A stretch of 63,995 bases of DNA, filler included, from Hausera hauseri (Eukaryota), in the NCBI GenBank assembly GCA_046269625.1. It is 12 parts of 12 records of this genome, joined end to end, with 100 filler letters (N's around TTAATTAATTAA, not from the genome) between each part and the next. Parts side by side here need not be neighbours in the genome. Positions count along the whole stretch, not along the records: positions 54,596 to 59,825 come from JBJURY010303389.1; 11 more parts are not named here. One strand, written 5' to 3'. The notes below the pieces were generated by a model. That model was not told the DNA's origin and did not search any database. It saw only the letters and a program-made list of their open reading frames with translations. The translations under genes and the position numbers were made by a program. Shown here one piece after another: positions 11,354 through 63,995 of this stretch (positions within the stretch are counted from its first letter, which is position 1; each line of letters starts with the position of its first letter).

Positions 11354-11634
11354 TTAATGGATCAGGCATACAAATGCTGCAATTCCAGTCAATTGTGTGT
11401 TAGTGCATAGTGTGTGGTTTGTACAATATATGAATGAGAGTTTTTTTAATTTTGTTTAAAATAATAAACAGATTTGCAACTTTATGATTTTGATTTTTCA
11501 AGTTACTCGCTATCTTTTTTCACATTAGAGTTTTATTTTCGTTCAAACATTTTTTGGATACTATGATATTTTATGATTTTGACTCCTAATAACTCTGTGA
11601 CTCGATCTATGGATATTCTAGTTACAACTTTTCA
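11354..11634 (+). repeat. LTR-like direct repeat, copy B
   Basis: Diverged copy of 4889-5171; abuts the truncated RT on the left and a PolB fragment on the right. Confidence 0.75.
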
Positions 11635-12363
11635 TGGAGTCCATGTTTAACTGCCTGCAGGAGATTTATGTAGTGGACTACATACCTCTCCCTATTACCC
11701 AGATGACAGAGCAGCTTATTCTGCTTTCAAGGGGGGGGGGAGTTTGCTCACCGGAAGGAAAGGCAGCTGTTGATGCCTTGTGCGGATGGAAGCCGGATAT
11801 TCTATATCCACCTCCAGTATGTAGCCCGTATCTCCACTGGGATCCAGGTCCAGGATAGGGATGTCTTCAGGATCCTCAACCTACTTGGACTTACCATATG
11901 GCAATGTGGCGCTCATTGCCCATCCATACAAGTTGTTGGCATCCATGTATGAAATATATGAGGACTTCTTTGGTGAGTCGTATTCAGACATATACTTGTT
12001 ATTGGCCTCACTATACCGGTGAATGGCTTGGCATATTCCCCCTCTAATGCCTCTTTTGCTCATAAGGATCGTGTCGTAATCCTTAATGATTTACCGCCTG
12101 ATACCGGTATAGCGCAGCATTGCTGCCCAGCTCATCCCTGGAGCCGTGAAGAAATGAGCCGCATCCAAAGTATGACTCTTCATTGTGACATCCCTGAAAC
12201 ATTCAAAGATATCTGTCAGCAGCAGCACATCGGTTTTGAGATATATATCATTATATTCCCTTAATGTTCTGCATTGGAATGACTGTTAGACGTTCTGAGC
12301 ATATTGGTAGTTCTAATTATCGATATCTCAATCCGACAGCTGGCTGTACTAGTTCCGTTTGGT
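11635..12363 (-). mobile_element. Polinton/adintovirus protein-primed DNA polymerase B fragment
   Basis: RGIRGGICQ...EANNKYM..YD..K.SSYISYMDANNLYGWAMS (ORF 11881-12063); close paralogue of 21640-22329. Confidence 0.9.
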
Positions 12364-15400: not shown

Positions 15401-16601
15401 TTGCTTTTCCATGGTGTGGTCTTCCTAGATGTGGTCTTCCACGGTGTGGTCTTGCATGGTGTGGTCTTCCATGGTTTGGTTTTTCAAGGTGTGGTCTTCC
15501 ATGGTGTGGTCTTCCATGGTGTGGTCTTTCATTGTGTGGTTTTCCATGGTGTAATTTTCCATTGTGTGGTCTTTCATGGTGTGCTCTTACACGCTGCAAT
15601 CATTCATGCTGTGGTCCTCCATGGTGTAGTCTTTCATGGTGTGGTCTTCTATGGTGTGGTTTACCATTGTGTGGTCTTTCACGGTGTGATCCTACATGAT
15701 GTGGTCCTTCATGGTGTGGTCCTCCATGGTGTGGTCTTCCATGGTGTGGTCATCCACGGTGTGCTCTTACACGCTGCAATTATTCATGCTATGGTCCTGC
15801 ATGGTGTGGTATTATATGTTGTGGTCTTCTATGGTGTGGTCTTCCATCGTGTGGTCTTTCCCGGTGTGTTCTTCCATTATGTTGGTTCTCATGATGTGGT
15901 CCTCCATGGTGTAGTCTTTTATGGTGTGGTTTTCTATGGTGTGGTCTTTCATGGTGTGGTCTTCCATGGTGTGGTCTTCCATGGTGTGTTCTTCCATGGT
16001 GTGGTCTACCATTGTGTGGTCTTTCATGGTGTAATCTTTCATGATATGGTCCTCCATTGTGTGGTCTTTCACGATGTCATCTTCCATGGTGTGGTCTTCC
16101 TAGGTGTGGTCTTTCACGGTGTGGTCTTCCATGGTTTGGTTTTTCAAAGTGTGGACTTCCATGGTGTGGTATTTCGTGTTGTGTTCTTCCATGGTGTAAT
16201 CATTCATGGTGTGGTCTTTCATGGTGTGGTCTTTCATGGTGTAAACTTTTATGGTGTGGTCTTCCATGGTGTGGTATTTCATGCTGTGGTGCTCCTTGTT
16301 GCAATCGTCTAAGGCGTAGTCTTGCAAGGTGAGGTCTTTTATTGTATGATCTTTCATCGTGTTTTCTTTTATGGTGTGGTCTTCCATTGTGTGGTCTACC
16401 ATTGTGTGGTCTTCATGGTGTGGACATTCCTAGTGTGTTCTTTCATTATTTAGGTTTTCATGATGTGGTCCTCCATGGTGTACTCTTTCTCGGTGTAATC
16501 TTTCATGTTGCGGTCTTCCATGGTGTGGTCTTCCATGGTGTGGTCTTCCATGATTTGGTTTTTCAAGGTGTCGTCTTCCATGGAGTGGTCTTCCGCGGTT
16601 T
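12464..16601. repeat. About 4.1-kb minisatellite, 15-bp unit CATGGTGTGGTCTTC, with higher-order variant blocks
   Basis: Reads HGVVF / MVWSS / WCGLP on + and MEDHT / RPHHG on -; variant blocks such as TTACACGCTGCAAT recur. Confidence 0.97.
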
Positions 16602-16989
16602 GAGTGCGCCTGAGACATGGGATCGAGTACTGCCCGTGACTCACATAGCGCCCAGGCCCCCTGCACGTGCAGATGTCTCCGGCACTGTCTAGGTTTTTGT
16701 AACTGAACTGTCGTCTGAACCTTCTCATTCTTTAGATAAGGACAGTCAGTAGGCTCGGCCAACGGACACCTCCCCTGACCAAGTGCAGGAAGAGTCGCCA
16801 GAACCCTGTATTTCCTAACAATGAGCATTCAGTGAGCTGTTTGAATTCGACATGTTAGAATGGCATTTACGCAACAGAAAAACCCAACGAGCTAATTAAC
16901 AGGATGATATCTGATCTTAGCGAGTCTATCAGCTTTCTCACTGAAACTGATGATTGTCTGGCCTGGTATCCACTGCATACATACATTCA

Positions 16990-19860: not shown

Positions 19861-19926
19861 GGCTCAACAGGCATAGCGGTTCCGCCTAAAAGCCAAAGAC
19901 AGCGGCCAGTTGATGCTGCTGCATTA

Positions 19927-22329
19927 ATGAAAAAAGTCCGCAAATATGCCACTGATGCAGCTGTGCAAAGAACCATCAAGGAGTTCCTGGAAGATGCAAA
20001 GGAAGAAACAGAGGGGATCCTCCAGGACAATATGACTGAGCTCAAGTCCCTTAAGGTTAATATAAAACTTGAGGCCACAAATGTCAATGTCGATGCCGAA
20101 GAATCAAATAGGGCCTTCAAGACCAAAAATAGGCCCATATTTAAAAACACAAATATAGCTAAATGGCTGCATGAAGAGCATACAAAGCTGATTCGTAAAG
20201 CCGATGAGAGCCAGGATAAAAAGAGTGAATGGGCTCTGTCAACCATCAAGAGACTGCTTACATATGTACACAGATACTCCCCCATGCAAGGCAGTTCATG
20301 TATACAGCTTCCGAAATGTATAGCTAATAAAAAAGTATGCATCAATGTCCTTAATAATGACAACAAGTGCTTCATGTATGCCATTTTATGTAAACTCGTA
20401 CGGGATCAAAAACATGCAGCAGATCGAATTTGGCTATATAAGGATGTGCAGCACAACTATTGCTTCCAGCATATCCCTTTCCTGCCATCCATAGATGAGA
20501 TTGCGAAGGTCAGTCGAATCAACAGCATATCAATTAACATCTTTGGATTGGATGAGGAAGATAAATTCTATCCCCTGTAGATATGCAATGTTGAATTGGA
20601 AGATCATAGGGTGAAAACAGGCATTTCATCTGGATAAAGATGTTTGAGCTTCTAGTCAGATCCCAAATTATGAAACATAAGGAAAGAATCGAAATATGTA
20701 AACGATGCTTGTCTCATTTCAGCGGCAAGTTAACTGTGGAGAAGTTGAAGGAGCACAAGATGTACTGTAACAACAATTACTGTGTAAGGCCAGAATTCTC
20801 CGAGGAAGACTATATTGAATTCAAGGAGTTTGAGAAGAAGATCAAGTTCCCAATAGTTATCTATTGCCACTTTGAGGTTACTCTGCGTCCAGTTCAGAGT
20901 TGCAGCCATAATCCTCAACATAGCAGCACACCGGCATACCAATATCATGAACTCTCATCGTATTGCTTTTATGTCAAAGGACTTGACATTAAACCATTTC
21001 TATTCAGAGGTCCAGGTAAAGTAGCATATTTCATGAAACGACTTGAAGACATGGCTCATAGGCTTGAAAACATTCATCAGCCGCATAAGTATAACATGAG
21101 CATGTCGTAGCAGCAAGAAGATGAATGGCGCAAGGCAACAACATGTTACTTGTGCTACAAACCCTTCACCAAGGATAATCATAAAGTCAAGGTTCACTGC
21201 CATTTTACAGGTGCATATCGGAGCGCAGCATGCAATAACTGCAATCGTTGCTGCCAAATATGTACATATGTGCCTGTAGTGTTCCATAATCTCAGTAACT
21301 ATAATTCCAACTTCATTGTTCGGGAACTGGACAACATTGATGGGAACAGTGATGTGATTCCAAATAGTGAGGAGAAGTACATCACCTTCACGAAGCATGT
21401 GGGCCGCACCAGACTTCGATTCATAAACAGCTTCCGCTTCATGAGCTCGTCACTGGATAGTTTAGTGAAGAACCTCCCTGCAGAAGAACTCAAGGAGACA
21501 AAGCGGTTCTTTCTCACTAACTTTGACCTAGTCAACAGGAAAGGAGTGTTTACCTACGACTACATAACATCATGGGAAACACTGAATGAGACCTTATTAC
21601 CGCCCAAGGATGGCTTTTATAGCCAGTTATCGGACTGTGATATCAGTAATAAGGACTACCAGCATGCTCAGAATGTATGACATGCATTCCAATGCCTAAT
21701 AATAGGGGAATACAGTGATATTTACCTCAAGATGAACGTGCTGCTTCTGACAGACGTCTTTGATAGTTTCGGGGATGTTACGATAAAGAGCCAAGCATTC
21801 TATCTGGCTCATTTCGTTACGGCTCCACGAATAAGCTGGGCAGCTATGCTGAGATATACCGGCATAAGGCTGCAGATCATTAAGGATTATGATATGATCC
21901 TTATGATCGAGAGGCATTAGAGGCGGAATATGCCAGGCCATTCACCAGTATAGCGAGGCCAACAAGTATATGGCCGAATACAACTCAACAAAGGAATCAT
22001 CATATATATCATACCTGGGTGCCAACAACTTGTATAAATGGGCAATGAGCGACCCATTGCCAAATAACTTCAAAAGGGTCAAGAATCCTGAAAACATCCG
22101 TATATTGGACCTAGATCCCAATGGAGATACGGGATACATACTGGAGGTAGACATGGAATATCCGGCTTCTATCCATACAAGGCATTAATAGCTGCCTTTC
22201 CTCCCTGAGAGCATGTCTCTGCCTCATGGAAAGCATAGGAAACTGCTCTGTGATCTGGGTAATAAGGAGAGGTATGTAGTCCACTACATCAATCTCCAGC
22301 AGGCAGTTAGACATGGACTTCGTATTACC
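19927..22329 (+). mobile_element. Polinton/adintovirus protein-primed PolB with endonuclease-VII-like insert, pseudogenised
   Basis: GSSCIQLP...CINVLNNDNKCFMYAI; ICKRCL; IYCHFE (ExoI-like); C..C...KVKVHCHFTGAYRSAACNNCN; VVFHNLSNYN; FINSFRFMSSSLDSL; RKGVFTYDY; ANNLYKWAMS; several in-frame stops. Confidence 0.93.
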
Positions 22330-28830: not shown

Positions 28831-30284
28831 TTTTTTTCACTGCCGGAGAACAGTAGCTCACCAAGAATAATCTTGGTTTGGAGCTATTTGCACTGTTCCC
28901 GGAGGGGAAAACCCCTTTTTATTTGAAATAACATAAAAATACAGATACAACAAAACATCAATACATATACAACAATAAAAAGAAATGCAGTTAATATAGA
29001 TAACACTACTAAAAGTAAAGATATAAGAATAAAAGTTCAGATGCAACAATATGATAGAATGCAGTTAAAGGCAGTATAAGGAAAATGAAATTGTGCTCAA
29101 GAATTGAGAATGGTAGTAGAGAACATAAAAATCCTCCGTAAGACAAGAGAGCCCAGTAGCAGCCGGGCAGTTCAAAATTGGCATGATAACAAAATAGCAG
29201 GCCATAAATTGGCAAAGCAAAATAGAGTGACTTACATTATTAATGATAAAAAGCATACAGATATATATAAATGTAATTACAAAAGAAAGCAGTGTATGAG
29301 AGAGAAGAAAGGTAACTTTGTTTACCAGTGAATAACTAAATTCTTGTGATAAATATATGCACTACAGTTAAAATCAAGTCAGAATAGCAATTCATACAAT
29401 GGAATAGCAGTCAATTACTCTGTCACATTCAGCACTTTGTTCGGCTGAGAAAATAGCAAAAGGCAGAAACACTGAATGGCAGAAATAGAAATCAATGGTT
29501 AAGGAAAAATTAAAACGTTAATAACTTTACAAAAAAGCGAGATTAAAACAAAAAGGCAAAAAAAAATCAAACCTTAACGTCGAAGCTTTTCGGGAGGGGA
29601 AGAACTATCCCCCTAGTCAAAATTAAAAAGTTTTTTTTTCATTTAAACATGAAGTTTATGAGGTATTTAGATAACAAACACAATCACACAGGCAAAAACA
29701 CTGTGCCCACCTATATGCCTTTCAGCACTGGGGATAAAAATATCAGACAGGAGAGAACTGGGCTGTATTTGTGATTCAGACTGTAGTTTAGTTTAAAAGT
29801 AATAACATCCTTGAACATACTCATTTTACTAAACTTTTCTCATTCTAAAATTTGTGTTTCCACAGATTTTTTTCCGTGTTGTTTTTCTGAACAAGGCTAC
29901 ACATACTTGATGTTTTTTAAGACCTTGTCACTGTCTGTCTGTATAATCTGCCAGGATCCATCTCACCATCTGCCTCCTTCTTCATCTGTCTGCTCTTTTC
30001 TTTCACTTTGTTGATGTCATAGTTCCTCTCCAGTATTTTATCAGGGCTGTTTGCATCCGGTGGGCTTTGTCTGTGCATCCCTACATCTCGTCTCGTTAAC
30101 TTCAGTATTTGTTCCCATGTTGCTCTATTTACAAATCTAGTTTAGATTAGAAACACCTAAAGAAANNNNNNNNNNNNNNNNNNNNNNNNNNNNNNNNNNN
30201 NNNNNNNNNTTAATTAATTAANNNNNNNNNNNNNNNNNNNNNNNNNNNNNNNNNNNNNNNNNNNNGCCTTCAACAGCCGGTACA

Positions 30285-33200
30285 GGCAGGCCTAGGAAAA
30301 CGAGTTTACTCACGTAGAGTTATAGCCGGTAAAATATGGCCCGGATATGGTGGAGCATGTAAAGGAGAAAGCATGATGATAAATGGACAAAAAATCCGCT
30401 GTAGTACAAATAGAAGATTTTACTGTCACCATAAAAAATATAAAGTAAACTTTGATGCAATTATAGGAAAAATGTTAAACGCACTATCTTGTACATATTC
30501 TGATGGAGTGTGTACATAGGGGAATCTACCCTAGTTTGGGAAAACACGGTCGTAATATGTCCACTATCTTTCGTTAAACAAGTATCTTTGTACGAAATGC
30601 AAGGTAATTTATATTATGATGACGAATACCAATAACCTGTACATAACTATAATATAAGTTTACCTACCCCACGAACCTTAAAACAGACCACTTCTTGGAA
30701 AGTCTTAATGTCATCCAGAGACAAAGATGGAATCGTACTGGCACGCAAATGAGCAGTATCGACTTGTGGATCGAATGCAGTTTATTCTACATCTTATGAA
30801 GACTTATTCGTAACAAAAGAAACCTTAGGGAATACAGGAAAGCTACCAACTGAAGATATAAAGTGGTACTTATACACGAATAATAAGATAGATTATATTT
30901 ATCACACGGCAAAAAGGAATTTAGTTGAGTTGTATAACATGATGGTATTAAGATATTGTAAAATCACTCAAAAATTGAATCAGAACGACGTAATACTAGC
31001 TATAGAATTTCGTGAACATATTGCTTTAATTATGGGATATCGTCCTGGAACATTTGATAGAGTACAGGGCGAAACATTCCATGTGTATCAATGCCCTCCG
31101 ATGGAGGTAACCCCAATAACAAGCACAAGACAAAATTGTACGAATGAATTAATTGTTCAGTATAATGATAAAAACATAAATAAAATTGGATATGTGGATC
31201 CTATTACTCGAAAATTATTGTTACCTACTGAAATTAGCTTTACAACATGTTATAAATATTTCTATCCAGCTTTTAAGCTTAATGACGGAAGGTGGATTAA
31301 AACACGCCCACCAATTATGATGAACATACCACACACGATTGAGTTATTACCAATGGATAAAGGTATGCAGTTTAAAGTAAATAGAGAACTCCCCACCAGT
31401 GGATTGTATTAATTAACAGACTTGGAAGCAGTAAGAAAACAAGTGTTATTCCAGAATATCCGAAAAAAGGTTACCACAGAATTTGTATATACTGTTACAA
31501 AAGGATCAGGTGGTATACCTAATTATGGAATATTACTCCCAATCGACTATTTAGAAAGAACATCTAAAAAGATCCTTTATGACTTTTGGAATAAATTCCT
31601 TATTTTTGGTCAAGTTATATCTGGAGTCTTTGGGATATATGTTATAATTACTGCCATAATGGTTATATTAAGACAGATAGGAACTGCTAGGAATATAAAG
31701 AAAGTACGTGGTTTTACATGGCAAATTATGTTTGGATGTTTTCCTTCAATGCCTCAATCAGTATTAATGTACTGGCATGCAAAGAAACTTGACAAATTAA
31801 GAAAAGAACTTCGTTTAGCCCCAGAGTTAGAACAACAGTTATAAGCTTTTATTAAGTTAACAGTGGAAGAATATCTAGTTAAATATAAATTATTAAGAAA
31901 GAAAGCTAGACAACACTCCGAGCTAGAAGCGCCCACATACTTCAAACCCGAATTTATTAATGAATTCCCAGAATACCCTGATTACAGAGAAATAAAGGTC
32001 ACGTCCAATGGCAAGATATTTAGATGAATGTACCTGTTTACCAAATACTGCTTATCCACCTAATGTCCTCCGACAATATAATACCGCTAACACTCGACGG
32101 AATAATACAAAATTCATTTTATGACCAAAACCAATACAACAACAGGAAATAACCCTTATGTTCAAGTACTATTTAATGGATTAAACATTATGGTACTACT
32201 AGATACCGGTGCATCCGTGTCAATGATTCGACATTCATACATAACTGACGTTCAAAAGGAAACAATCATGCCTAGTGATATACTAATAGCAGCAGCCAAT
32301 TCTACACAAGTACAATTTCTAGGAAAAATAAACATCAAAATAAGAATCAATGATAATCTACACACCATAACCCTGTTTGTGGTGGATGATAAAACATTGC
32401 CAGTACCCTTAGTAATAGGAATGGACGTATTATCTCAAATCTTCGGACTCTCAATGGATCTATCAACCAAAACCCTTAAATACACGATGACCAACTTGCC
32501 AATTGAGGTAATCAGCATGACCTTGACTCATGACGTTATTATCAAACCACAACAACAAATAGTGGTACTGCTAACGATACCATCGCAATACCACAAGCAA
32601 ACTTGTATGTTTGAACCGAATTTATATAATAATGAAAAATATGAGATCCTACAATATCCCCTATTTATACCAAAAGGAGTGCAAAATTTGAAATTGTCAA
32701 TGGAAAGCATTAATAAAAAGGCAATCAAGTTACGACAAAACCTTAACCTAGGACAATTACAACCGGTTAAAATATGCACAGCAACGTTCTTAGTAGAAGA
32801 TGAAAATATCAAATTTAAAGACTGTGAATTTACTTTATATCAATTAAAAAAACGATTGCAGTTATTCCACAAATATAAAGATATTATAGCTATGAATGAT
32901 AACGATATTGGCAGAACTAACGTAATTAAACATTATATAATCACAGAGAACACCTATCCTATGAAAAAAAATCCGTATAGAATGGCTGAAGTCAAGAAAG
33001 AAGAATGCGATAGACAAATAGCACAAATGGTGGAACACGGTATTATCAGACCGAGTTTCTCACCATGGACATCCCCAGTAGTATTATTGCAGAAGAAAGA
33101 TGGAGCACAACGATTCTGTGTAGATTTTAGAGCAGTAAATAATGTTATGAAGAAAGATAATTATCCATTACCAAAGATAGATGAGATGCTTACAGCTTTG

Positions 33201-34890
33201 AGAAATGCCGTGATATTCACCACCTTGGATTTGCAGTGTGAATTTTTGCAAGTCGAAGTTGCCGAGGAAGATAAGCAAAAAACAGCCTTTACTAGCGGAA
33301 CTAGATTATGGTAATTTAATGTTATGATTTTGGTTTGACAGGAGGACCTGCCACGTTTCAAAGATGTATGAATTTTGCATTGTAAGGAGTAACCTGTTGT
33401 ATGGTTTATATAGACGATGTAATAATATTTTCTGAAAACTTCAAACAACACTTAATGGACAATTTACAAGTATTTGAGAGACTGAAACATGATCATTTAA
33501 AAATCAAATTGAAAAAATGTGAATTTGCTAAAAATACTGTCACTTTCCTCGGACACATACTGTCGAGTAAAGGAATTCAACCTAATTCTAGAAATGTAGA
33601 GAAACTTAAGAAATTAAACCACCCAACTGTCTTAAGGAGTTAAAAAGACTGTTAGGAATGGCCAATTATTACAGGAAATTTGTATATAATTTCGCAAATA
33701 TAGTTAAACCATTAGTAGAATTAGTCAAGAAAGAAACAACATAAAATTGGGAAGAAACACATCAGAGTGCATTTGAGATTTTAAAACAAATTCTTACTTC
33801 ACCTCCAATATTACAATTTCCTGATCCCAAATATCCTTATGAAATAATGACCGATGTCAGCGGTTACGCTATATGAGCAGTCTTAGGACAATGCGTTCCC
33901 GACAGACCTCGTGAAGGAATAATAGCTTGCCTCAGTAAAACGTTAAGTGAAACACAACGTAGATGGTCTACAATCGAGCGAGAATGCTATGTGATAGTAT
34001 ATGCTCTACGATATTTCAGATATTATATAACTGGACGAGAAATAATTTTATACACCGATCAAAAACCCTTACAATAGTTAATGAAACAACGGGATACCAG
34101 CCGAAAATGAATGAAATTGGCTGCAGAAATCCAGGATTTACAGATATCAATAAAATACTGACAAGGAAAAGGTAACGCTAATGCAGATTTCCTATCAAGA
34201 CTTTAGGAAACTGATATTGATCAAGAGTATAACAATCACACCAACTTCGATTACGATGATACGCAGGATTTAAAGGAACATTATTCGCAGAAAGTTCATT
34301 TAAGTATACCCAAAGCAACACGAAAGAAACACACTAAGGATACAGACCAATTTATAAGTATAATTATACAAACACTGAACAAAGATAATCAACGAAATGC
34401 AAAACAAAGTGACTACAAGGATCCGTTAGTGGAAGACATCTTATATGAGTATTACAAAATGATCGACTTAATTCAGACCATGATAGATAAGGTAGACAAT
34501 GCGGAATTCAACGAAGAGATGCATATATTCTTATCCATACCAATTACACACGAAGCTATAGCTAAAGAACAAGCAAAGGATGAGAAAATTTGTAAAATCC
34601 GCCCTAGCCTAAACAAAGAAGGGAGCAAAAATAAATATAAAATGGAAAGGGGAAATATCTACTATCAAGAAAGTGAAGACTTACTCATGGTTGTGCCAAA
34701 AACACATGCGTGCAAAACTTTTATTACATTATCATGACGGACAAATTGGAGGACATCGAGGTTATAAAGCTACATTAGGCAGACATAAACAAAAATATTA
34801 CTGGCCAAAGATAGCGGATGATATAAAAGATTGCTGTACAAATTGTCAAGTTTGTTCAAAGAGAAGAGGAAATTTTCAAGCAAGAAAAAC
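30285..34890 (+). mobile_element. Decayed 'env-before-pol' Gypsy-type retroelement, copy 2 (glycoprotein, TM, PR, dUTPase-like, RT, RNase H, integrase HHCC)
   Basis: Glycoprotein (GETFHVYQCPPMEV...QNCTNEL...YVDPITR; FWNKFLIFGQVISGVFGIYVI) at 30285-31844; PR LLDTGASVS; RT SPWTSPVVL, RFCVDFR, YIDD; RNase H TDVS and WSTIEREC; IN YHDGQIGGH...YYWP...CQVC. ORFs starting 30930, 31422 and 32121 share one frame. Confidence 0.88.
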
Positions 34891-41975: not shown

Positions 41976-42347
41976 CGCGAATTTTTATTTTCTGGTAGAA
42001 CTGATTATTTACGTGGATACCGAAAACCGAGCGTCAATAAGCCTCATAATAGATGAAGACGAGGACGAATCGCCGGACAAATGGAGAAACCCCAGGCTAT
42101 TCATGATTACTGGCTTATAAATAAGGAGATTTTTCTGTATAACCAATTATTGTATATCTAAATTGTCAATAAAAATTAATAAAGTCGCCTTGCTCTTGAA
42201 AGGATTTAATGTCGATTTTGTTAAGATTTTCCTTGCCTATTATGCAGAAGGCATACCTTATCATATGGATTTCAAGTCCGTTTCCACTCCCGTCAAATCA
42301 CCTACTCAACCTATAACCCACAAGGAGCATTCGCACCCATCGGAACA

Positions 42348-42529
42348 CCTTGTGCAATCTGCTTGAACCCCTATTCAATGGATCCTGTGGAACGGACCAC
42401 CTGTAAACATAAATTTTGCCGATCTTGCTTAAAAGAGTGGTTCCTAACATCAACTTCCTGTCCGTTATGTCGAGCGTACAATAGGCTATTTCGAAGTGGA
42501 AATGAATACTTTACTATTCGAAAATTATA
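42348..42529 (+). pseudogene. RING finger (C3HC4)
   Basis: PCAICLNPYSMDPVERTTCKHKFCRSCLKEWFLTSTSCPLCRAY. Confidence 0.85.
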
Positions 42530-42766
42530 AATACAATGTTATTTTTAGAAGTTGTTTAATTACACGGGAGGAGGCACATAAGGGTGTAAAATAATTACTT
42601 AGTTGGTCGAAAACCTACGACAATATTTAGAGTTGTTTGTCAATAGAATAATTTATTAAACATCAAAGTTAAAACCAGTTTCGTTTTAGTCCAAATGCAA
42701 ATGATCAAATGCACTGAATATGAAACACCAAGACTATATGCATGTTAGGAATTATCCCAATCAAAC

Positions 42767-43477
42767 ATGATAGGGTACTTACGATATTATAGAAATAGGC
42801 AAAATGGACCAGCTGCATTTATCAGAAGAACAATAGATTATACCAAGATGAAAGTAGTTGACGACTCAACGAGAGATACCCAGACGAGGAAAATATTATT
42901 CTTGAGCCATCCGAATGTATCCGTTCCGGGAGAGTTAGCCCAGTTGTATGCGAACACCGAATTATTTCGAAAATTAGCTAGACAAATAAAATGCCTGTAT
43001 TGCCAAGGAGACTTCCTTTATGAGTCTACGAAAGATCAACCAAAAAGGACTCATAAGAATTTATCCCACCTGCCCTTATCTATTAACACTAATGTTAATA
43101 ACATGCAATTAACAGATAATTTTTCTAAACCGGATATAGACAAAGACATCGAATATGGCACGACAATACCAGTGCGAATGATTTATTCAACGGATAATAC
43201 AGTAGAAGAAAACTTATACCTAATTTCAAATACAGTCCATAAAAGAAAGTCAACCTTTAAAGGAAACAAAAATATTGAACATTTACCTAAACAAGGACTA
43301 ACACTAATTTCAAGAGATCAGTATGTAAAATGTACGATATACTTAAAAGAAACCTGTTTACTGGAAAATATCGAAAATAGATGCACAAATATACTGCATA
43401 CCATCAAATGCAATTATTCAATATATAAAATCCCCGAAGACACATTAAAAAACGATGCCGAATACAATCTTATATAG
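42767..43477 (+). CDS. Unidentified 236-aa ORF downstream of the RING cluster
   Basis: Open frame in AT-rich DNA, codon style like the retroelement ORFs; no motif recognised. Confidence 0.4.
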   Translation: MIGYLRYYRNRQNGPAAFIRRTIDYTKMKVVDDSTRDTQTRKILFLSHPNVSVPGELAQLYANTELFRKLARQIKCLYCQGDFLYESTKDQPKRTHKNLSHLPLSINTNVNNMQLTDNFSKPDIDKDIEYGTTIPVRMIYSTDNTVEENLYLISNTVHKRKSTFKGNKNIEHLPKQGLTLISRDQYVKCTIYLKETCLLENIENRCTNILHTIKCNYSIYKIPEDTLKNDAEYNLI

Positions 43478-46863: not shown

Positions 46864-49231
46864 TATGTTTTGGAAGAAGACATTAGAAAGAATATTAAAT
46901 ACATATTACTGGCCCAGCGTATACATCGATATGAAAAACTGGGTAAGCGCTTGTGAAGTATGCGCTACCAAACAGCAAAAAGTTACATTGCTGACCTAAA
47001 TCCAATAAATGTACCGGAAAGACCAACACAAGCAATGCCCATGGATATCGTAGGACCTTTACCTACAACTCACAAAAGTAACAAATACATCCTGATGCGT
47101 ATAGACCTATTAACCCACTTCGTCGAATTAATGGCATTAGTGGATCAAAAAGCCCAAACCATGGCAAAAGCCGTAGTAAGGAAGATTATCTGTAGATGTG
47201 GACCTCCCGAACAGATTTTAACGAACTGAAGAAGAAACTTTACGAGTGAATTATTAGATAAAATTACCAATATATTTGAAATTTAACGATTAGACACAAC
47301 AGCTTATCACCCCAATGTAATGGAATGGTCGAACGCATGAACGCGACAGTTATACAAATCTTGTCGACAGTAGTCGCAAAATACCAGAAGGATTGGCATG
47401 AATTTCTAGGAGGTACACAATTTGCTATCAATACTACACCACATCTTGCGACCGGATTTAGTCCATTTTTTATAATGTACGGTAGAGAAGCCATACTACC
47501 AACAGACCTAGGGATGATACCGTATACGACAAAAACAGAAGACTTAAATCAAAATTTTGTCGAAGTGTTACAAACGAGATTCCGGAAGTGTTGGGAAGTA
47601 GAAAAAAAATTGTCTCAAGAGTATCAAAAACAATTTAAGAAACAATAGGACAGGAAGACTAAACCACATAATTTAGAACAAAGAAATTTGGTTTATGTAC
47701 ATTACCCAGTAGTCAAGAAAGGTACATCTTTGAAGCTCACTCAAACTAGAAGAAAACCTTATCAGTTATCAGAACCACGCCGACCACGATTTATATTAAC
47801 GAAAATGGCAAGGAAGAAGTCGTTTCAATAAAAAGAGTGGTTAAAACAGGAATAAAACGAAATAAACGCTATAACTTACGTTCAAGTAAAGAAAATCCAG
47901 GTCAAAGAAAGAAAGAAAAGAAAGCGTCATCTATAGTAACCCGGCCAATATTGTATGCACAGATAATCATTGCACTATTGCTAATAACTTCATATATGCC
48001 AAAGGTAAAGACAATGGATAATGGATATAGTAAACGATATCCACGGAGTTGTGCCATATTTTCCAACTGAAAAAGATCAACATGCAGAAAGGCGAAAATA
48101 TATAGAATTTACAGTCGATTATAGTCCACAATATGGATTGGAACAAACCATGCGCCTGGTTTAAGGCAACTGAATCCCTTAAAAACCACATGAAATTTCA
48201 AATAATATTTGTAGATCAAGTCAATACTGCAATGAGGACATGTAATTTTCCGTATCGAGCCTATCAAAAATGTTGCAAATTAGAATTCGGACGAACATAT
48301 AAATATAATTTAAAATGTTCTATTGTAATATGACCGGAGCTCAGGCCTACATAAACACCGAAATAAAAATGCCTCAGAGTAACGATGCAAATGAAGCTAA
48401 GACGGACGATATAGACCGGAATACCGATCCGTTTAAGAGACTTCTAGATTACAACATTACTGGATTCTCTAAAGACGTTAAAAAATGATGCTTTCAAATT
48501 AAGATCAAAATCGAGTTGCCAGTAGACAGACAAATTTCCATTCGATTCGTACCATCAAATTCATCGACACTCTCAGCGAAATATTGCTATACTGCACAGA
48601 AACGGAACAATCCATGTTGTGAATTGCCACTGGTATACGAGTTCCAGGTACATTTCGATCTGTATAATACTTACCCAAACGACCCAAGCACCTGTTTAAG
48701 AGGATATCGTCCAAAAGTCGGAATATGGGAAATTTCGTTCTCAAAAACCACGAGAAAACCATCGACCACACCAACCACAACTATTACTACTAATATTGCG
48801 ACCTCGAGCAAAATGCCCGAGAGAGAATTAGAAAATATACCTATTAAATTTTTGGTACGGCATAATAAAATGGTATTTTACGTTAAAGAAACTTTGGGCT
48901 ACGAAGTTAAAATTGAGTGCCGCACTTTGCATGCCAACCAAATTGTAATCTTAAGAAAGAATAGTCAGGAAATTGAATGCTAATCCCTACAATCACTGAA
49001 TGACTATATAATTCAAATTACTGCAGATGGTAAGAGACATAAAACTTTTACAGTACGAACTCTAAACAACAAAGTTCAAGAAATGCAATATAAGGGTACT
49101 AGTACTCAAAATGCGATTACCACGAAAAATTNNNNNNNNNNNNNNNNNNNNNNNNNNNNNNNNNNNNNNNNNNNNTTAATTAATTAANNNNNNNNNNNNN
49201 NNNNNNNNNNNNNNNNNNNNNNNNNNNNNNN

Positions 49232-54595: not shown

Positions 54596-57500
54596 ATTTT
54601 ATTATCGGTGCTGATACATTCGCCTTTTGATCTCGTCAAAAGCATCCTGGTTTTCTTCTGTCCACTACCATTTTTGGTTCTTCCTTAATAGCTTATATTA
54701 AGGCTGGTTAATTTCTGCAAAGTCAGCTATAAAGGTAGCACAAAATCCTCTCAATCCTAACCAAGTTTTCATCTCGTGCACGTTAGTTCGAGGGGGATAT
54801 TCCAATATTTTAAATATTAAATCAGGGCTGGTTGATATACCTTGGTGAGAAACAACAAATCCAACGTATCTAACTTCCTTCTTGCACCATTCATATTTTC
54901 TCGGATTTAACTTTAATGTTGCGAGCCTGATGCGATCAAATACTTCTTTTAAATCTACTAAATGTGCCGACCATGTCTTAGATGCGATTAGAATGTCGTT
55001 AATGTATGATAATCTTCGTACTCCTTTTAATATTAACGAATAAATTCTTGGAAGAAGGTGGGTGCTGTTTTCAAACCAAACGGCACACGTGTAAATTGAT
55101 AAACCCCTGTATGCGTCTTAAACGCGGTTTCCAACCGATCTTCTTCAGCCATGGGGATTTTCCAAAAACCACTTTGTAAATCTAACGTGGTACAGTATTT
55201 ACAATCTTTCAGTTCGTCTATAATGTCTCGTATTTGAGGTATCTGATAGGCATGATTTATCAAATGCTTATTTAATGTAACATAGTTAACACACAAACGG
55301 TATTTTGTCGTTTTAGCTTTTTTGGCCATAACTATTGGAGAGGGCCATAGCGATTGACTAGGCTCTATGATACCCTTGTCTAATATTGCTTGAATTGGCT
55401 CCTCAACTTCCTTTTGTAGTGCTTTTGAAGGGGGTACCATTTGGTATAGGTTGCCGCAATAAATCTATTTCTTTTCCTGTTAATGGGTCGATCATAAATG
55501 ATAGTTTGAATTTAACGAAATTGGTTCGTCCGATGTCCGTTTTATCTTTGGCAAAAATGTCCAAAATACTCAAAAATAAGATCGGAAAAGTTTTCTAGAT
55601 AACCATCTGATAGATTTTTCTTAGCTTTGCGAGAACGACATCAAGTTCATCTTCATCCTTTTCTTTTCCTTTGATTGATATGGCTGCGGTTTTACTATTG
55701 TATTCGTCATGAAGAATTGTTTCAAGGGCCCGTCCGAGTTTCATCTTTGTGAATAATGTGACGTATTTAAGGGTCGGATTTAAAACTTCAATAGGGATAG
55801 TTCCTTCGACTACGTTAACACAATACTGTGGCAGTATAAGCCCATTTTGAATAATTTTCGGTACAAACTCGATTATACTATTATCTGAGAAGACCGTTCT
55901 GGCATGTATGACCATTCTAGAATTGGGTGGTATTTTCTAAACGTGTCCTACGCAGATGTCTGCTTTATCGTAGGTAAGAGGAATATTTTCATTATTAAGG
56001 CAAATTGATTCAGATTGTAGATTTATGTGTACACCTTGTAAATTTCGTAACACGTTCATCTTTAGGATGCATCTTGGATCTAGGGTGGTAATTACATCTA
56101 AGGTTATTTTGAATCTTTTTCCACAAATCCATGGTTCGCATTTCCAATATCCATAGGGTTTGCTGCATTGCTGGAAGGCTGAATTGGTACCATGTGAGTC
56201 TTTGGTGGATAATTTTATTTGAGATTGTAATTCTTCTGGAATTGCCTTTTTCGCTATTAACGCTACATTAGCTCCGGTATCCGCCATAGCATTTAAATTA
56301 AAAGTACCAAAATGAACTGTTGTGTGGGGTCGATTATCTCTTAATAATTCGTGAAAAGTTAATACATCGTTGTAATCATCTATATGAGGTTCCATGAAGG
56401 TCTAACTGGCTGAACAGTATCTAGTTGTTCCGTTAGCTAATATGACCGTCAGACTTTCCACTGATTGTGTATCATTTTCTGACCCTTTTGATTTGTTTTT
56501 GAGTTCAGTCAAATCTGGGTAACAGCTTAAATATTTTGATGTTGTTTGTTGTACATTACTGGATTCAGTTGTTGGAATTATATATTGGGATTTCCTGTCA
56601 GGTTGAGCTTCTCTTGATCTGTTTGCTGGATGGTAGGGTACCTGCGGTATCATGCCCAATTTAGGTGATATTGGTAACGTTACTCGATTATTTTCCATAT
56701 TTCGCGTAATAATGGATTGACGTATCTCGTCCTGAGAGTACTTGGGTAAGTTACATAATTTTATGTAATCTTCTTTCTTTGCGTAAGGATCTGTTAAGTA
56801 TTTCAGATTAGATAATTTACAAATAGGCATTGTTTTACTCTCATATGATGCAGCAGGTAATTTTTGCATATTGTTTCTCTTTGGTTTCATAAATTTGATT
56901 TTTCTCCTCTTATCCTTAGGAATTCCTGTTGTGGAATATTATCCAGGGGTATTACCGTCATCTGAACTTGATGAGGTATCCTTTGGTAATAGTTTCTACT
57001 ACTTGTAGTAAACATGTTTTTCTAATTTACCTCGCCATTGTTTCTCATGGTAGGCTTTGATGAATTTGCCAATCAGAGAAAATAAAACGCCTATTATACT
57101 CAACGATAATCCCGTTAGATGGTAAATCTCATAAGCATTTAGCACAGAGTTGATACAGACATTTAAAGTTTGTATAATAAAATAGATTGACAGAAATCTT
57201 GATGCTACTTGGCCGAATCTTAAGAATCCTCCCCACATTTTGTATCACAAATTCGAGACGATTTTGGTATAGGCATCCGGCGTCCATAATCGATCCTATT
57301 TCCCTTCTCCTGCTGTGTTGTCAATTACGCAGTGTATTCCTCGATTTACTATTTGTTCTCTCTGTCTCGAATATGCCAAAAACTTTACAAATGAATTGAT
57401 GTCTTTCTTGCTATACAATGCTGACTTGGATACGTCAGTAAACATGTTGGTTTCAGTCGCATGTTTCAGATTTGGCATCGTTAATTTATTTGGTTTTTCT

Positions 57501-59530
57501 TTGACTCTATCGCGATCCTGTAGTATAATCAAAAGATCTTGGTTATCATACTTGATTAATGGCTTATTTAGTGCTGAACAATTTTGGATTTCAGTAGGTA
57601 TTGTATGTGATGCCAGAAGCACTCTGAGGATTGGTTGCACGTATCAAATTTCTTCATTATATTTGACAAGTATTTCAGAGTAACACGGGGAACCCGTAAT
57701 TAATGGTAATTCTAAACGTTTACATATATATGTATGTAGCACCTCTCCTAAAATCTGCCCTGGATTCCTTCTCCAAATGGGAAAATTATCGTTATCATTT
57801 CCGAGTTAGACGCATAATTGGCTAAGCGATTTCTTAGAGTTTCAAAGTTAACTTTGCAAAAGTTTTGAATTGTTTCAGAATATATTTTCTCAATTGTTCT
57901 ATGAATCAAATAGAACAAAAAATCATCTCTGTTTGCAATATAATCAGCAATGTTTACTAACTGAGCCTTATTAGTAGGCGAATTATCAGCACCTTTGATT
58001 TCCTTTTCTGATATAAAATGTTTGTCGTAATTCGTACTAAATACTTGTTATCCACACTTTGTAATCGCATCTTGTTGATTAAATTTGACTCCTCCTGTAA
58101 TATCCTTGGATATTNNNNNNNNNNGTTTTTACTTTGGGAATGACTTGAATATTAGTATGTTCAGAAGTGGTCTTATAGTGCCGTGAGTAACGTTTTCCCG
58201 TAGTTACATTAAATTCTCCCCTTCGTATTTGTACTAATGTACAATCATAACTTGTTGGCAATTTCCAAACTATTGTGGATGTTTTTAGCTTGCAGAAGAA
58301 TGCGTCCATCATTGTATTTATACTAGTTTCAAAAATATAAGTATTATCCTTAATCTCAGCTTATATTGGTCGTGTACTACAATACTTGCTTCGACACCTT
58401 TACCGGTATCAAAATTTCCTTCTCTACAATTACCTTTTTCATCTTTATAACCAGCGATCCATATTTCTTGTTGGGTTACTTGTCCTCTTATTGAGGTCAA
58501 CAAAATGTCATCCCATTTCAACTGCAGGGTTTCTCCCGCATCTCTACAATATGTAAGGTTAACTGACACATATTTAGGCATATTGGTTGGCTTAATATAA
58601 GAGTCATGATCTAGGTGACCGCAGTGAGAAATGGTACGGGATACGCGCAGTGAAAATTCCACTCCTTTTATGTGTAACATAGTTTTGTCGTAGTAAATAT
58701 ACAAATTTTGCGTTTGAGTCTCCAATTTCCTTGGAAGGGCATCCGAACAAGATTGTAGATCCATCAAGGAGTAGTAGTTTCCCCGCATATATTTGGTCGC
58801 AATAATATGCCAATATAGTTCCTGTCCTTTAAAAATTTGTGAATAGTACCAACAAGAGTAGAATAAATTGTAAAAATGTTCCGTTATGTTTTACGCCATC
58901 ACTCTTCTGGACTTCTTCCTGTATTTGATTTGACATTTTCTCCATAATAATGCGAACTATTTCTTCTTGAGATGCATTTTGAGTTATTTCAAATATAGCT
59001 TTCTCTATGTTTGTCTGTTCTACTTCGGATTGCATTTCCTTCCCATTTTGTAAAAACAAATCACTCCATTTTCTTTACAGCTGAATAACAGATTTGCTGG
59101 CGAGAATTATTTTACCGGTTGTAATTTTAAATTCGGCTTTGCTGGGTGTTTCTAATATCAGTAACAATGTCACCTTTTCGAGTATTAAGCGGGATAGTGT
59201 TTCGAGGATTAGCTGTATAATATCATTATTGTTTAAGTTTTCCCATTCTGAATTTTTCTTAAGAATTTTTATAAATTTTAGTTGCTCTTTAACTCGTTTC
59301 TTCCATTTTTAGATCCAGAGTTTATTGGATCCTTTCCAGTCTCTATGTAATATATTTCTCTACCTAGTTTCTTCACTTCTTTGTATTCTTTATACAAGTT
59401 TGGGGTTTCATAATCCATCATTTGAGTAACAAAATTCCTGACAATAGTTATTTATATAGAATAAGTAAGTAAATCAGTTCAGATTTTATTTAAACGTGTT
59501 TGAAATTGCACTAGTTTTGGTGTCAATAAT
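54596..59530 (-). mobile_element. Decayed 'env-before-pol' Gypsy-type retroelement, copy 3 (helical region, signal, glycoprotein, TM, linker, PR, dUTPase-like, RT)
   Basis: FLQFILLLLVLF..AYYCD; VSRTISHCGHLDHDS; GNCREGNFDTGKGVEASIVV; WGGFLRFGQVAS TM; MADTGANVA; RT SLWPSPIV, YRLCVNY, LDLQSGFW, VPFGLKTAP. ORFs starting 59059, 58813, 58312, 57640, 57238, 56890, 56395 and 55915 share one frame. Confidence 0.9.
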
Positions 59531-59574
59531 CTTTTAAATATATCTCATTACTGTATACACTGAACTGGCAGCAC

Positions 59575-59825
59575 AAAACTTGGCCGCGTTGACGCTCGAT
59601 CCCGGCGCGGTCTCGTATCGAGCGGAAATCAAGTCGTGTGTGGCACTGCGGCAGTCCTTCATCGACGCGAAGGACCAACTTCCCGAAGTGTCACGGCAGC
59701 GCGACGCGATGCGGATGTTGATCGATCGTGAATTGGCCATACTGCGTCCCGTTTGGACTCACGACGATTTGCGGGCCTTCTCCGTGGACATGGCCACGCG
59801 GGCGGAGATTGACCGCCTGATCAAG
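59575..59825 (+). other. GC-rich coding-like fragment of different composition fused to the AT-rich element
   Basis: Abrupt composition shift near 59575; open frame to contig end; no motif recognised. Confidence 0.5.
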
Positions 59826-59925: not shown

Positions 59926-62780
59926 TTGCATTTGTCGAAATTGATTTCGGGATTATGATGGTTAAGACGTTGGAATATTGCGCGAAGGTGTTCTTCGTGT
60001 TCTTTGGCGAAAGATGAAACTACTAAAATATCATCGATATAAAGGTGTGCAAAAGGGAAATTTGCAAGAATTGAATCGATGTGGCGCTGAAAAGTTTATG
60101 CGGAATTTCTCAAACCAAATGGCATAAATAGGTATTCGTAGAGACCAAAAAAAGTAGTTATTACAGTTTTTTCTATGTCTTCGGGTGCTACCGGTATTTG
60201 ATGGTATGCTTTAGCTAAATCAATTGTTGAATAGATGGTGGTTGAATTAAGGCGATGTAAGATATTCTTGATGAGTGGTAAAGGATATGCGTCCATGATA
60301 TTCAAGTTATTCAGTTGTCGGTAGTCACCGCATGGTCCAAAAGTACCGTCCTTTTTGTACAACGTGTAAAGGTGATGACCAAGGAGATTTAGAACGGCTT
60401 ACTATGCCGGAACTTTCTTGTTCTACAAATTCTGCTTCTACGGCCTGTCTTCGACGAGGTGGCAAAGGCCGTACTTTTTGGCGTATCGGACGTTGGTGCT
60501 GTGTGGCTATGTGGTGTAAAATGCTGTTTGCGGGAGTAAAAGTACGATTTTTTTTAAGTACGCGTAAACATGATTTGTTGACGAATTGCTGTAACGTTGT
60601 AGGTAGCTGTGAGAGATTCGATGAAAGTGGTGAAACGGTTTGGGTAGTAGCGGATGCAATTTGTGAGTTGTTAGGTAATGTGCAGTCAAGTGGTATTTTG
60701 TGTAATATGGTTGAATTGAAGATGGTGTTGAATAAAGTTACTTTGCTGAATGGAACCATGTTGGTGGCAGTACCACACTCATCGACATCAAATCTCGATC
60801 GTATATCCATATTATTGTTTAAAAATTTACGAATGGAATTATTGTTATAAAAAATAGAATTATTCATTGACTTTCCCAGGATTGACTTCCGCCCCCCGGT
60901 CAACTGCGCAGTAGTCGAAACGCAATTTACATGTCCAGAAATGTCGCCAACGGTGCCTCTCCTCAAACACCGCTGACTGCAGTGAATCAGTAAGTTGTAG
61001 TGTGTGAGAAAGTCAGATCCAAGAATTGCCGACTGGACGTTAGCGATTGTGAACGTCCAGTGGAAAGTTGAAAGAAAATTCGGCAGAGTGAATGATAATT
61101 TAGTCGTATCAGAAATGTGCAGCGGTTAGCCTGAAGCAGTGTATAAGTGTTTGATATTGAATGGAGTATTTTGTGCGGGAAAAGTTGATGGTACTAAAGA
61201 AATTGCTGCACCTGTATCGATGAGAAAGTCAGTAGATTTTGTTGATGGGGCAGTGATTGCAGCCTTTAAAGTAAAGACTGCAAAAGAGACGTGTCGGCGT
61301 ACAGAATCTGAAGCAGAGCCTTTTCCAGAGTTTGTCGTGATCTCTAACGGCGAACTTAGTTTTTTTGAAAAAATAAACTTGGACGACTGTGAGAAGTGAA
61401 GGCAGTACGCCCGTCGTTCGTATTAGATTTGAAGGTACAGCCGGGGATACATTTACGTGCTTGATTTTTGAATCTTGCATGGTAAGTGCAAACAACGGTG
61501 TTCGAGGAAAAATTCTTGTTATAAAATTGGCACCCCAGGCCGCACTTCTGGGCATTAGTGTTGAATCTTCTGTGGTAATAGCAGATCGATGAACGCGCAG
61601 GCGATGGTGAGCAGCTTCGTGACGTAGAACGGGTACGGGCAGCGGCAAAACTCCCCGTCCGGACAAAGACAGTTCATTTTATTTAGTATTGATGTTGCTG
61701 ATTGTTGCCTGCAATGCAATATTTTCAGAACGTAGCTGATTAAGCTGTTGTTCTATGCATGTATTGTTGTTAGTTGCAACTGCTGCTAAAATAACTGATG
61801 GAGAATTTACATGTAGGACATCGTGTGTCCTATCAGCTAACTCGGCCAATTTTTCAAGCGGTGTGGAATCCCCCACCACGGTAAGGAGGGCCCGGATTTG
61901 AATAGGTAGGGCATTAAGAAAATAGTGGCGCAGAAGATCTGGGTTGTGCTCCTTAGTGACGCCAAGAGTACGTAAGTGAGCTAACGAGATGCGTAGGAAG
62001 TCACTGAGTTTTTGTGTCCCCATTGCATTTTCATTAAAGGAACGTTGCATTATGGAGTCGATTGATGGTTTTGTCTGTTTTAATACAGCATCGAATAATT
62101 GGGTATAAGGGTCATGGTGTTGAAAGATGTCTAGTAAGTTATGGATTGAGGCTTTTATGGAGTTTGGGAGAAGATAAAGTAGGCTATGGGCTTTGGATAA
62201 GGAGTCTGTGATACTGTTGGACTGTAATCAGAGTTGATGGAAGTGGAGGCACGTTTTTCTGGACTTTTCTTTATCTATGAAGTAGTCAGTGCAATGTGGA
62301 GAAGTATTGATAGGATTTTTGTCGGTTGAAGTAGGTGTATGATTTGGTCTGGTGTAGTAGAAAAAGGGTATTTCCTTTTTTGTGGTGGTTGTATCCGTGG
62401 TATCAATGGTTGGCGAAGTGTTCATGCCACCACTGATACGGCAATGTATGATGAAGCAAGTGTGATTTGAGAAAGGAGGTAGAGTTCCGTTGAGATGTAT
62501 GATAGCGCCGTTTTGATTGAGGTAAAAGTCGGGAGAATTAAGTAAGGAAGAAATGCAGGTCTGAAGGGTGAGAATGTGTGGATGTGTTGTATTTAGTGTG
62601 TAGATATGTATATTGTTAAAAAAGAAAATGGATGTGGCAGCAGTGGTGCACCTGGGGGCATAATGTGTGGCCGACGTCGAAGGCGCCGTACGACCGACCG
62701 GCGCAGGGTTGGCGGTTGGAACCTCCGCCCCGATGGGGCGGGCACCAAAATGCAGGGTACCCGAGTTTCCCCTCAAACTG
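59926..62780 (-). mobile_element. Decayed Ty3/Gypsy element (gag, PR, RT), same family as 8460-11353
   Basis: SPTIDTTD gag start; LLRHYFLNALP; LIDTGAAIS; PWSSPLHVV, GDYRQLN, DAYPLP, MPFGLRN, YIDD. Confidence 0.92.
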
Positions 62781-62859
62781 CGCAACATCGGAATGCTGTC
62801 GGGTATAGATGTTTGGGATATTTGATTAAGATTTCGAATTCCGTCAGAAATTTGATAAA

Positions 62860-63995
62860 AATGTGAATAATTCATAGTTGGTTTCATTAATTTTTCGGTC
62901 CACCACATAAGGGCCAGAAAACTGAGCATGTAGACTTGAACCGGACAAAGGGAGCAAAACCAATACTTTTTCACCTGCGTTAAAGCTTCGACTGACAGAT
63001 TTTTTATCAAAACGAATTTTCATTTTTGACTGAGATTTGGACAGATTTTCTTTAGGCAACTTGCACACGTGGAAAAAGATATTCTCTGAAGTTGCTAACA
63101 TAATCCAACACATTATGTTCAGTTTGAGGTGACTCTGATAACCATTTTTCTTTAAGAAGACGAAGCGGTCCACGCACAGTGTGTCCAAAAACGAGATCAG
63201 CTTGGCTAAAACCCAGTGACTCCTGTGAAGTTTCGCGGACAGCAAAAAGTAACAGAGGAAGACCCTCATCCCATTCTCTACCAGATTCTATGCAATATTT
63301 GCTCAGCATAGACTTCAAGGTTTGGTAAAATCTTTCCAGTGCGCCTTGAGATTCTGGGTGGTACGGGCTGTAGGTTTGATGTTTTATTTTTAGGATTTTT
63401 AGAACTTGTGCAAATATTTTAGACATGAAATTTGTGCCTTGGTCTGTCTGGATTATTTTTGGAAGCCCAAAAGTAGAAAAGAACTTGGTGAGGGATTTCA
63501 CAATATTCTTAACTTTTAATGTGCGTAATGGAATAGCTTCTGGGAAACGAGTTGCTGCACACAGGATTGTCAGAATATACTGATTACCATACTTTGTTTT
63601 TGGCAAGGGGCCAACACAATCCAAAATAACTCCCTTAAAAAGTTCACCAAGCACAGGTATAGGATACAGGGGCGCAGTTGGTACTAACTGATTTGGCTTC
63701 CCTACAACTTGATGTGTGGCAAGAACAACAGTATTTTACAACATCAGATTTTAATCTGGGCCAAAAAAAGTTTCTTAATATGCGGTGCTATGTTTTCTTT
63801 ACACCAAGATGTCCAGCTAAACTGGAGTCATGCCAGAATTAAGATCTGAGGTCTGTATTCACTTGGCATCACCACCTGATCAACTCTGTGAGTGTCACCT
63901 GAGTCTGGGGACCAGCGTCTCATCAGAACACCGTTTTCAACGAAATACTATTCTATGGCTACAACAGAAGAAAAACATGATTCTAGAGAACAATC
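62860..63995 (-). mobile_element. Gypsy integrase of a different family, of a type common in teleosts
   Basis: AGHLGVKKT, CHTCQVVGKPNQ, DCVGPLP, TRFPEAIPLR, QTDQGTNF, YHPESQGALER, QFSGPYVV. Confidence 0.9.

Follow-up and report, generated by a model that had tools for sequence, protein, structure and literature searches.

Decayed, probably Burro-like Ty3/gypsy retroelements with a gB-type envelope ahead of Pol in the genome of Hausera hauseri

Three contigs within a 63,995-nucleotide stretch of the Hausera hauseri genome (assembly GCA_046269625.1; hereafter the window) carry decayed copies of a Ty3/gypsy long terminal repeat (LTR) retroelement, likely of the Burro/GYPSM1 type, whose relatives encode Gag, a glycoprotein B (gB)-type envelope protein (env), protease (PR), reverse transcriptase (RT), RNase H (RH) and integrase (IN) in one frame, as a chain predicted to be threaded through the membrane of the endoplasmic reticulum (ER). 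We give this reading a probability of about 0.8. The window joins 12 contigs with spacers of Ns in between; the genome is AT-rich and animal-like, and the copies in the window are dead. A preliminary description of the sequence had proposed the env-first order and rated its novelty as high; this rating does not hold, since the layout has been in print since 2019 (PMC6431247; also PMC13524379). What is new here is likely the decayed Burro-like GAG-ENV-POL gypsy members themselves, the env-first layout being already known.

The window alone supports a fusion of env to PR for copy 3 only, which lies on the minus strand of the contig at 54596-59825. An upstream helical coding region (58890-59310) is followed by an internal hydrophobic segment resembling a signal peptide (58838-58882; hydropathy 2.3 over 15 residues, in the position of the relatives' signal), by a gB/chuvirus-type class III env ectodomain with its transmembrane segment (TM; 57000-58800, with stops and frame switches), by a linker in the frame common to env and PR (56345-57001), a retropepsin (56040-56344), a PR-RT spacer alignable with the relatives' spacers (55700-55960) and a Ty3/gypsy-type RT, which runs with one internal frame switch to the contig end (54617-55422). 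The env assignment draws on collinear PF24664 (Monjiviricetes_fusion) pieces at 58780-57040 (E 5e-7, 1e-4, 5e-3 and 3e-11), on collinear tblastn matches with intact relatives and on the env tree; the retropepsin is recognised by RVP (E 2e-5 to 3e-5) and by a profile made from relatives only (E 2e-12), and the RT by RVT_1 (E 7e-16 and 7e-8). A single frame, interrupted by 9 stops over its 780 codons, extends from mid-env to the PR-RT spacer (57796 to 55457). Within it, the 219 codons of the TM-to-PR linker contain 4 stops when read with env, whereas the two alternative frames have 13 and 19, and 15 are expected (P about 5e-4), which indicates that the linker was coding. The earlier statement that TM, linker and PR are interrupted by point stops only is therefore correct, and that of a common frame from the upstream helical region to the dUTPase-like region applies to 57796-55457 but not to the ectodomain pieces at ~58800-58350 and ~58110-57780, which lie in another frame, as does the first half of RT; one of the frame switches coincides with a gap of 10 Ns. 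In run X1, perhaps the source data, 3084 contigs matched copy 3, in 28 of 30 bins, and 2588 of them were less than 95% alike, which fits a multicopy family.

Copies 1 and 2 lie on the plus strand. The contig of copy 2 starts inside the gene for a gB-type env, whose N-terminus is thereby cut off and which retains its TM (30268-31790; 66% identical to the relative P0004; PF24664 pieces collinear at 30753-31790, E 3e-27 and 4e-12). A retropepsin (E 2e-8), a spacer, RT, RNase H and an integrase zinc finger follow with several breaks (32154-34885; Pfam, tblastn and profiles), so that copies 2 and 3 do continue into RT, and copy 2 further into RNase H and IN, as had been described. This PR-RT-RH-IN order is that of Ty3/gypsy elements (Metaviridae) and recurs in the relatives. 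Env and PR of copy 2 indeed share a frame, yet the 43 codons between 32022 and 32150 contain 5 stops when read in this frame and a single one in either of the others; the frame is therefore locally broken. In copy 1 a helical and ubiquitin-like (Ubl) module precedes env, which is also the arrangement of Burro (644-1000; E 3e-8 with a profile free of window sequence, the best of 852 tiles); then come signal, gB-type env ectodomain and TM with several breaks (1725-3560; PF24664, hydropathy and env tree), the PF24664 pieces being collinear at 1811-3500 (E 1e-10, 1e-3, 5e-10 and 2e-9). At its contig end lies a degenerate retropepsin (4180-4369), matched weakly by the profile made from relatives only, at E 0.006 (0.08 for the domain), and not by Pfam, and its TM and PR open reading frames (ORFs) are in different frames. 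Hydropathy places hydrophobic, signal-like segments before env in copies 1 and 3. The succession of env and PR proposed for all three contigs is thus confirmed by Pfam in copies 2 and 3, and its PR is faint in copy 1.

Intact relatives carry the argument further. A profile made from the env pieces of the window and from P0004 was run against 1.84 billion proteins; the Pfam scan covered 26 of the 150 env matches listed, and the env tree took 27 others or overlapping ones. Among the 19 best env-profile matches, 12 possess a protease C-terminal to env in the same protein, five also an RT, and four RT, RH and IN together. Outside these 19, the cluster member P0154 (4844 aa) combines env, seven Pfam protease stretches, ankyrin and C2H2 zinc-finger matches, RT, RH and IN. 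A pattern search, with 593 matches, led to three metagenome loci. L003 is a single ORF of 2693 codons that reads gag, CCHC, signal, env, TM, PR, RT, RH, IN, signal, ectodomain and TM; L001, whose 5' end is open, likewise has one ORF, 3426 codons or longer, which includes env through integrase; L002 comprises gag, CCHC, Ubl and a Bcl-2-like domain, one in-frame stop, and env cut by the contig end. In L003, P0007, P0010, P0012, P0014 and P0019 gag or CCHC lies upstream of env in the same ORF, at a distance of about 230 to 700 residues, and env stands in frame between gag and pol within one polyprotein. The relatives measure about 2600 to 4800 aa, and several compact intact ones have 2600-3400 aa. 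The proposal that Pol is an in-frame extension of env is hence borne out by L001, L003 and the 12 proteins: in the intact relatives of the env clade examined no env follows IN, no conserved stop or LTR separates env from PR, and the predicted fold of env is class III. Scans of viral, metagenome and genome contigs with single proteins returned no match, nor did a scan of viral contigs with alignment A5.

The same relatives bear on the idea that chuvirus-like glycoprotein genes were inserted by chance before ordinary gypsy elements, or are nested with them. The broken state of the window copies, of which copies 1 and 2 are devoid of one clean TM-to-PR frame, would suit such insertions, which are nevertheless refuted by the intact single ORFs of L001, L003, P0007, P0008, P0016, P0019 and P0154, by the single env clade to which all belong, and by the variant contigs of run X1, which cover env, linker, PR and RT of copy 3 alike; we regard the idea as having next to no probability. 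Two further ORFs were seen in these searches. Behind the polyprotein of L001 lies a separate ORF of 496 aa (10617-12107) with a match to DEDDh-type exonucleases (RNase_T, E 1.4e-5), which the element carries as an accessory gene. Locus L004 (948-8108) is a single ORF of 2386 aa, gag-PR-RT-RH-IN-env, in which an F-type env (Baculo_F, E 2e-11) is fused after integrase.

The env proteins of the three window copies are 21-33% identical, and blastn found no match among the three copies, which shows the diversity of the family within one genome. In the env tree (FastTree, 45 rows) the window copies and 15 relatives form one clade (support 0.98), with copies 1 and 3 as sisters (0.99) and copy 2 paired with P0004; outside it stand 27 other glycoproteins, mostly stand-alone and about 650 aa long. 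As had been supposed from their divergence, the copies probably belong to an old lineage rather than being nested insertions, a view supported by these comparisons and by the run X1 variants. The preliminary description had also named a class III fusogen. A structural model of the env of P0013 (97 sequences, mean pLDDT 80.7, with a helix of 48 residues) matches herpesvirus gB in Foldseek (E 3.7e-14, TM-score 0.31-0.42, all listed rows being gB), and the env profile matches gB in the PDB by sequence (E 1e-3). These results support a class III, gB-type fusogen of five domains with a long central helix, for P0013 by its predicted fold and for the window copies by homology.

The upstream part of the copies had been described as a helical region without a recognisable capsid. 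Gag is indeed missing from the short window contigs, which is best explained by contig truncation, because gag or CCHC occurs in the same ORF in relatives. The helical region itself is, in copy 1, the helical and Ubl module given above. Ubl domains also precede env in L001, L002 (Pfam ubiquitin, E 2e-4), P0004, P0007 and P0010, and their profile matches Ubl domains in the PDB; in copy 3 the profile detected none, and a Ubl that seemed plausible there by eye was set aside. The helical domain that directly precedes the env signal is Bcl-2-like in L001, L002, P0004, P0005 and P0013, in all five of which the env signal lies ~20-75 residues past the GGW motif. Its profile matches Bcl-2 (HMM E 9e-4), and Foldseek returned rows of the Bcl-2 family only (E 6e-3 and weaker). 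In a VIA search with the L002 domain, the top 35 rows were all Bcl-2 folds (Z 12.1, with rmsd 3.1 over 128 aligned residues, down to 6.8), and unrelated chains came next (Z 5.7). With the Bcl-2-like profile, copies 1 and 3 took ranks 1 and 2 of the 852 tiles at the places where the domain is expected, with E values that are not significant (0.59 and 0.84). No match was obtained by an Atlas search with the Bcl-2-like region of P0004 or by a protein search with the N-terminus of P0005, and single-sequence PDB searches with P0005 and with the upstream ORF of copy 1 gave none of relevance.

Several observations weigh against a Burro-type polyprotein threaded through the ER membrane. Seven of the 19 best env-profile matches end in or just after env and have no protease; the protein closest to copy 2, P0004, terminates ~30 residues past the TM, at a stop or a contig end; and the in-frame stop of L002 (3058-3060) falls after the Bcl-2-like domain and ahead of the env signal, being either a lesion or a read-through site. 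The topology of the relatives is read from hydropathy alone, and Burro membership from architecture and a by-eye env match. A search for LTRs as direct repeats of at least 30 bases gave none in L001-L003 or in the contigs of the three copies, most of these sequences being cut by contig ends. The Z score of about 12 for the Bcl-2-like domain is below the level of about 13 under which the tool advises caution for helical bundles, and the best Foldseek E value is 6e-3. The PR-RT spacer of copy 3, described earlier as dUTPase-like, matched nothing in Pfam or the PDB, and this identity is not confirmed. Finally, RT and IN trees were built without named references, the latter also without the truncated P0019; in the RT tree (13 rows) 3 of 10 branches are starred and the env-first RTs find no firm placement, and this weak tree puts L004, with its F-type env after IN, among the env-first elements on a long branch.

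The shortened proteins lend themselves to another explanation, in which the ORF, though continuous, yields its working proteins through splicing or through messages that end early; most Gag and Pol would then never pass the membrane, and Pol tethered to Env would be in the minority. A strict 1:1:1 ratio of Gag, Env and Pol is unusual for LTR elements, which together with the stop in front of env in L002 and the ends of P0004, P0013 and P0015 shortly past the TM speaks for such messages. Against them, the linker of copy 3 kept the frame of env, linkers of very different lengths between TM and PR are open in 12 proteins and two loci, and L001, which is 70% identical to P0013, reads on beyond the TM. 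We consider spliced or early-ended messages rather unlikely. A stop right after the env TM, as P0004 might suggest, was set aside, since 12 of the 19 matches and two loci read through.

In the preferred reading of one membrane-threaded polyprotein, Gag and the accessory modules (Ubl and Bcl-2-like) would be made in the cytosol. The internal signal would then send the env ectodomain into the ER lumen, signal peptidase cutting behind it, and the cut signal would hold the C-terminus of the Gag/Bcl-2 part in the membrane, a role that resembles the tail anchor of cellular Bcl-2 proteins. With the env TM the chain would come back into the cytosol, so that PR-RT-RH-IN begins as a cytosolic extension of Env; behind integrase, a second signal would carry a further ectodomain across the membrane, and the proteases of the element would release the enzymes. 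Gag, Env and Pol would in this way share one membrane from the start, which could allow joint budding. Membrane threading, release by signal peptidase and tethering of Pol, all of which had been suggested for the ancestor of the copies, are what we infer from hydropathy and from viral polyproteins in general.

Beyond the integrase, all six relatives that run so far (L001, L003, P0007, P0008, P0016 and P0154) continue with a hydrophobic signal and a further domain, most of them also with a TM. Four of these six domains have the motif L-x-P/S-x-T/E-x-Y in common, and short motifs of this type are typical of FN3 domains. An FN3 identity of the post-integrase module is a lead only: the Atlas leads to it scored 0.90-0.92 and carried a low recognition value, Pfam found no FN3 in these modules, and in the PDB fibronectin (E 0.9-1.8) ranks behind a dsRNA-binding domain (E 0.01). 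Additional membrane segments occur between proteases as well. L001 contains a whole signal-ectodomain-TM module between proteases (aa 1581-1780), and its chain would therefore cross the membrane once more before RT; P0154 has extra hydrophobic segments between protease domains (aa 2086-2170). Retropepsin-like motifs number 3 to 8 per polyprotein in P0154, P0010, P0005 and P0008, some of them after the integrase.

A fourth fragment of the window, on the contig at 43723-49131, has a comparable 3' end. On the plus strand between 46847 and 49131, tblastn, profile and hydropathy (2.3) locate an integrase, a signal-like segment (47948-47992) and an ectodomain, which is made up of Cys-containing pieces and a Thr-rich stalk, includes a module with the FN3-like motif (48903-49046) and is cut by the contig end. 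The module profile of the relatives matches this fragment with E 1.7e-4, the best of 852 tiles; it is this match that links the fragment to the env-first family, the IN tree giving no placement. Judged from these similarities, it probably represents the 3' portion of a further Burro-like copy.

Taken together, the two membrane modules permit a tentative and, in our estimation, rather doubtful picture of Burro-like elements as two-glycoprotein retroviruses made from one multi-pass polyprotein, with a gB-type fusogen before Pol and a probably FN3-like attachment protein after the integrase, in the usual env slot. Both ends of Pol would be fixed in the membrane until tandem proteases cut it loose, with the env signal acting as tail anchor for the Bcl-2-like part. 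The proposed parallel is found in herpesviruses, where gD/gH have that role beside gB; should the second membrane protein serve for attachment, binding and fusion would be split as in herpesviruses, inside a single retroelement polyprotein. Extra signal-ectodomain-TM modules, whether after the integrase or between proteases, and tandem proteases are absent from the Burro account in PMC6431247, and the post-integrase module and tandem proteases did not appear in the main text of PMC13524379 or in literature searches; Jurka 2007, Grohme 2018, Sacco 2022 or the figures of the eLife paper may already describe the module. Within the limits of these sources, the recurrence of such modules and of tandem proteases is what may be new.

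The remaining contigs of the window carry other sequences, among them the host genes BROMI, PCF11 and RIO2, which lie on contigs other than those of the env-first copies. A BROMI/TBC1D32-like host gene at 5602-8338 (+) has in-frame stops and frame switches, which may reflect a pseudogene, short introns or assembly errors. Long pentapeptide-repeat-like ORFs occur at 12464-16830 (+); the minus strand there also has long open frames, and this stretch could simply be a tandem repeat of DNA. Pieces at 19861-21680 (+) recall Polinton-like elements in that they match, weakly, a type B DNA polymerase (E 2.5e-4) and an endonuclease VII (E 7e-4). At 42225-43474 (+) a RING finger (E 1e-11) precedes a weak BIR-like match (E 0.03), which could belong to a host IAP-like gene or, because BIR and RING motifs are reported for Burro, to an accessory ORF. 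Further gypsy-type gag/PR/RT/IN fragments without an env match are found at 8921-11400 (+) and 59926-63835 (-); their RTs pair with each other (100/100), apart from those of the env-first elements. At the end of the contig of copy 3 (59531-59825), GC content rises from 35% to 56% and run X1 gives no cover, so that this part is probably foreign or a chimeric contig end, outside the copy 3 element.

RNA-virus-like glycoproteins have been captured by other LTR elements as well. P0074, with DUF5641 before env, fits the BEL/Pao type and falls outside the env-first clade. Anakin-type and Atlas elements are BEL/Pao and not gypsy elements, and they carry env at the 3' end. As far as their descriptions go, Anakin-type BEL/Pao elements with a chuvirus glycoprotein (Kojima 2025) and the Atlas belpaovirus share with the copies described here the capture of such a glycoprotein. 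Nearer in layout are GAG-ENV-POL elements with a gB-type env, which are reported from Nematoda, Bryozoa and Platyhelminthes and described as non-monophyletic (PMC13524379; Chary and Hayashi, eLife 2026). Among them are the 'ancient errantiviruses' of platyhelminth group C1a (Smed_errantivirus_1-6), with a class III, gB-type env before pol as here, and the nematode NERVs, likewise metaviruses with env before pol (PMC13524379, summarising Sacco et al. 2022). Chary and Hayashi present GAG, ENV and POL as ORFs that follow each other in an order, and their main text lacks the words 'fused', 'polyprotein', 'in-frame', 'Burro', 'ubiquitin', 'Bcl-2' and 'fibronectin'.

These reports raise the question of convergence, i.e. 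whether the window copies belong to an independent GAG-ENV-POL lineage, NERV-like from nematodes or bryozoan, that is unrelated to Burro and has reached the same layout separately. The NERVs described by Sacco and colleagues in J Gen Virol reportedly possess a continuous gag-env-pro-pol ORF. The reported non-monophyly of GAG-ENV-POL elements and the want of a firm placement in the RT tree favour convergence. On the other side, by-eye comparison with the eLife supplement finds the compared nematode C2 and bryozoan env rows unlike the env-first family (of nematode C1, 1 of 19 rows was compared), whereas six Schmidtea C1a env rows (domain I-II) share its motifs, and the order Ubl, Bcl-2, env matches that described for Burro. 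We consequently hold an independent origin to be improbable and prefer membership in the Burro type.

Burro is known as a giant gypsy-like LTR retrotransposon with decayed fragments in a related species (PMC6431247); its size exceeds 30 kb, against 4-5 kb for the contigs that carry the window copies. BURRO1 RNA is expressed in planarians after smedwi-2 knockdown, according to the available account in PMC8532177. Planarian Burro/GYPSM1 has an in-frame env between gag and pol (PMC6431247; Arkhipova and Yushenova 2019), in an ORF of 4873 aa that is described as comprising gag with CCHC knuckles, Ubi/SUMO-like and BCL2-like domains, an env with matches to mononegavirus fusion proteins, PR, a dUTPase-like domain, RT, RH, IN and ankyrin (PMC6431247). 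The MATH, Smc, AIR1 and BIR domains mentioned for Burro were not found by Pfam in the relatives studied here. By description, the two have in common one polyprotein, gag and CCHC, Ubl, a Bcl-2-like domain, an in-frame env and PR-RT-RH-IN, and Burro1 with its 4873 aa is close in size to P0154 with 4844 aa, ankyrin being present in both.

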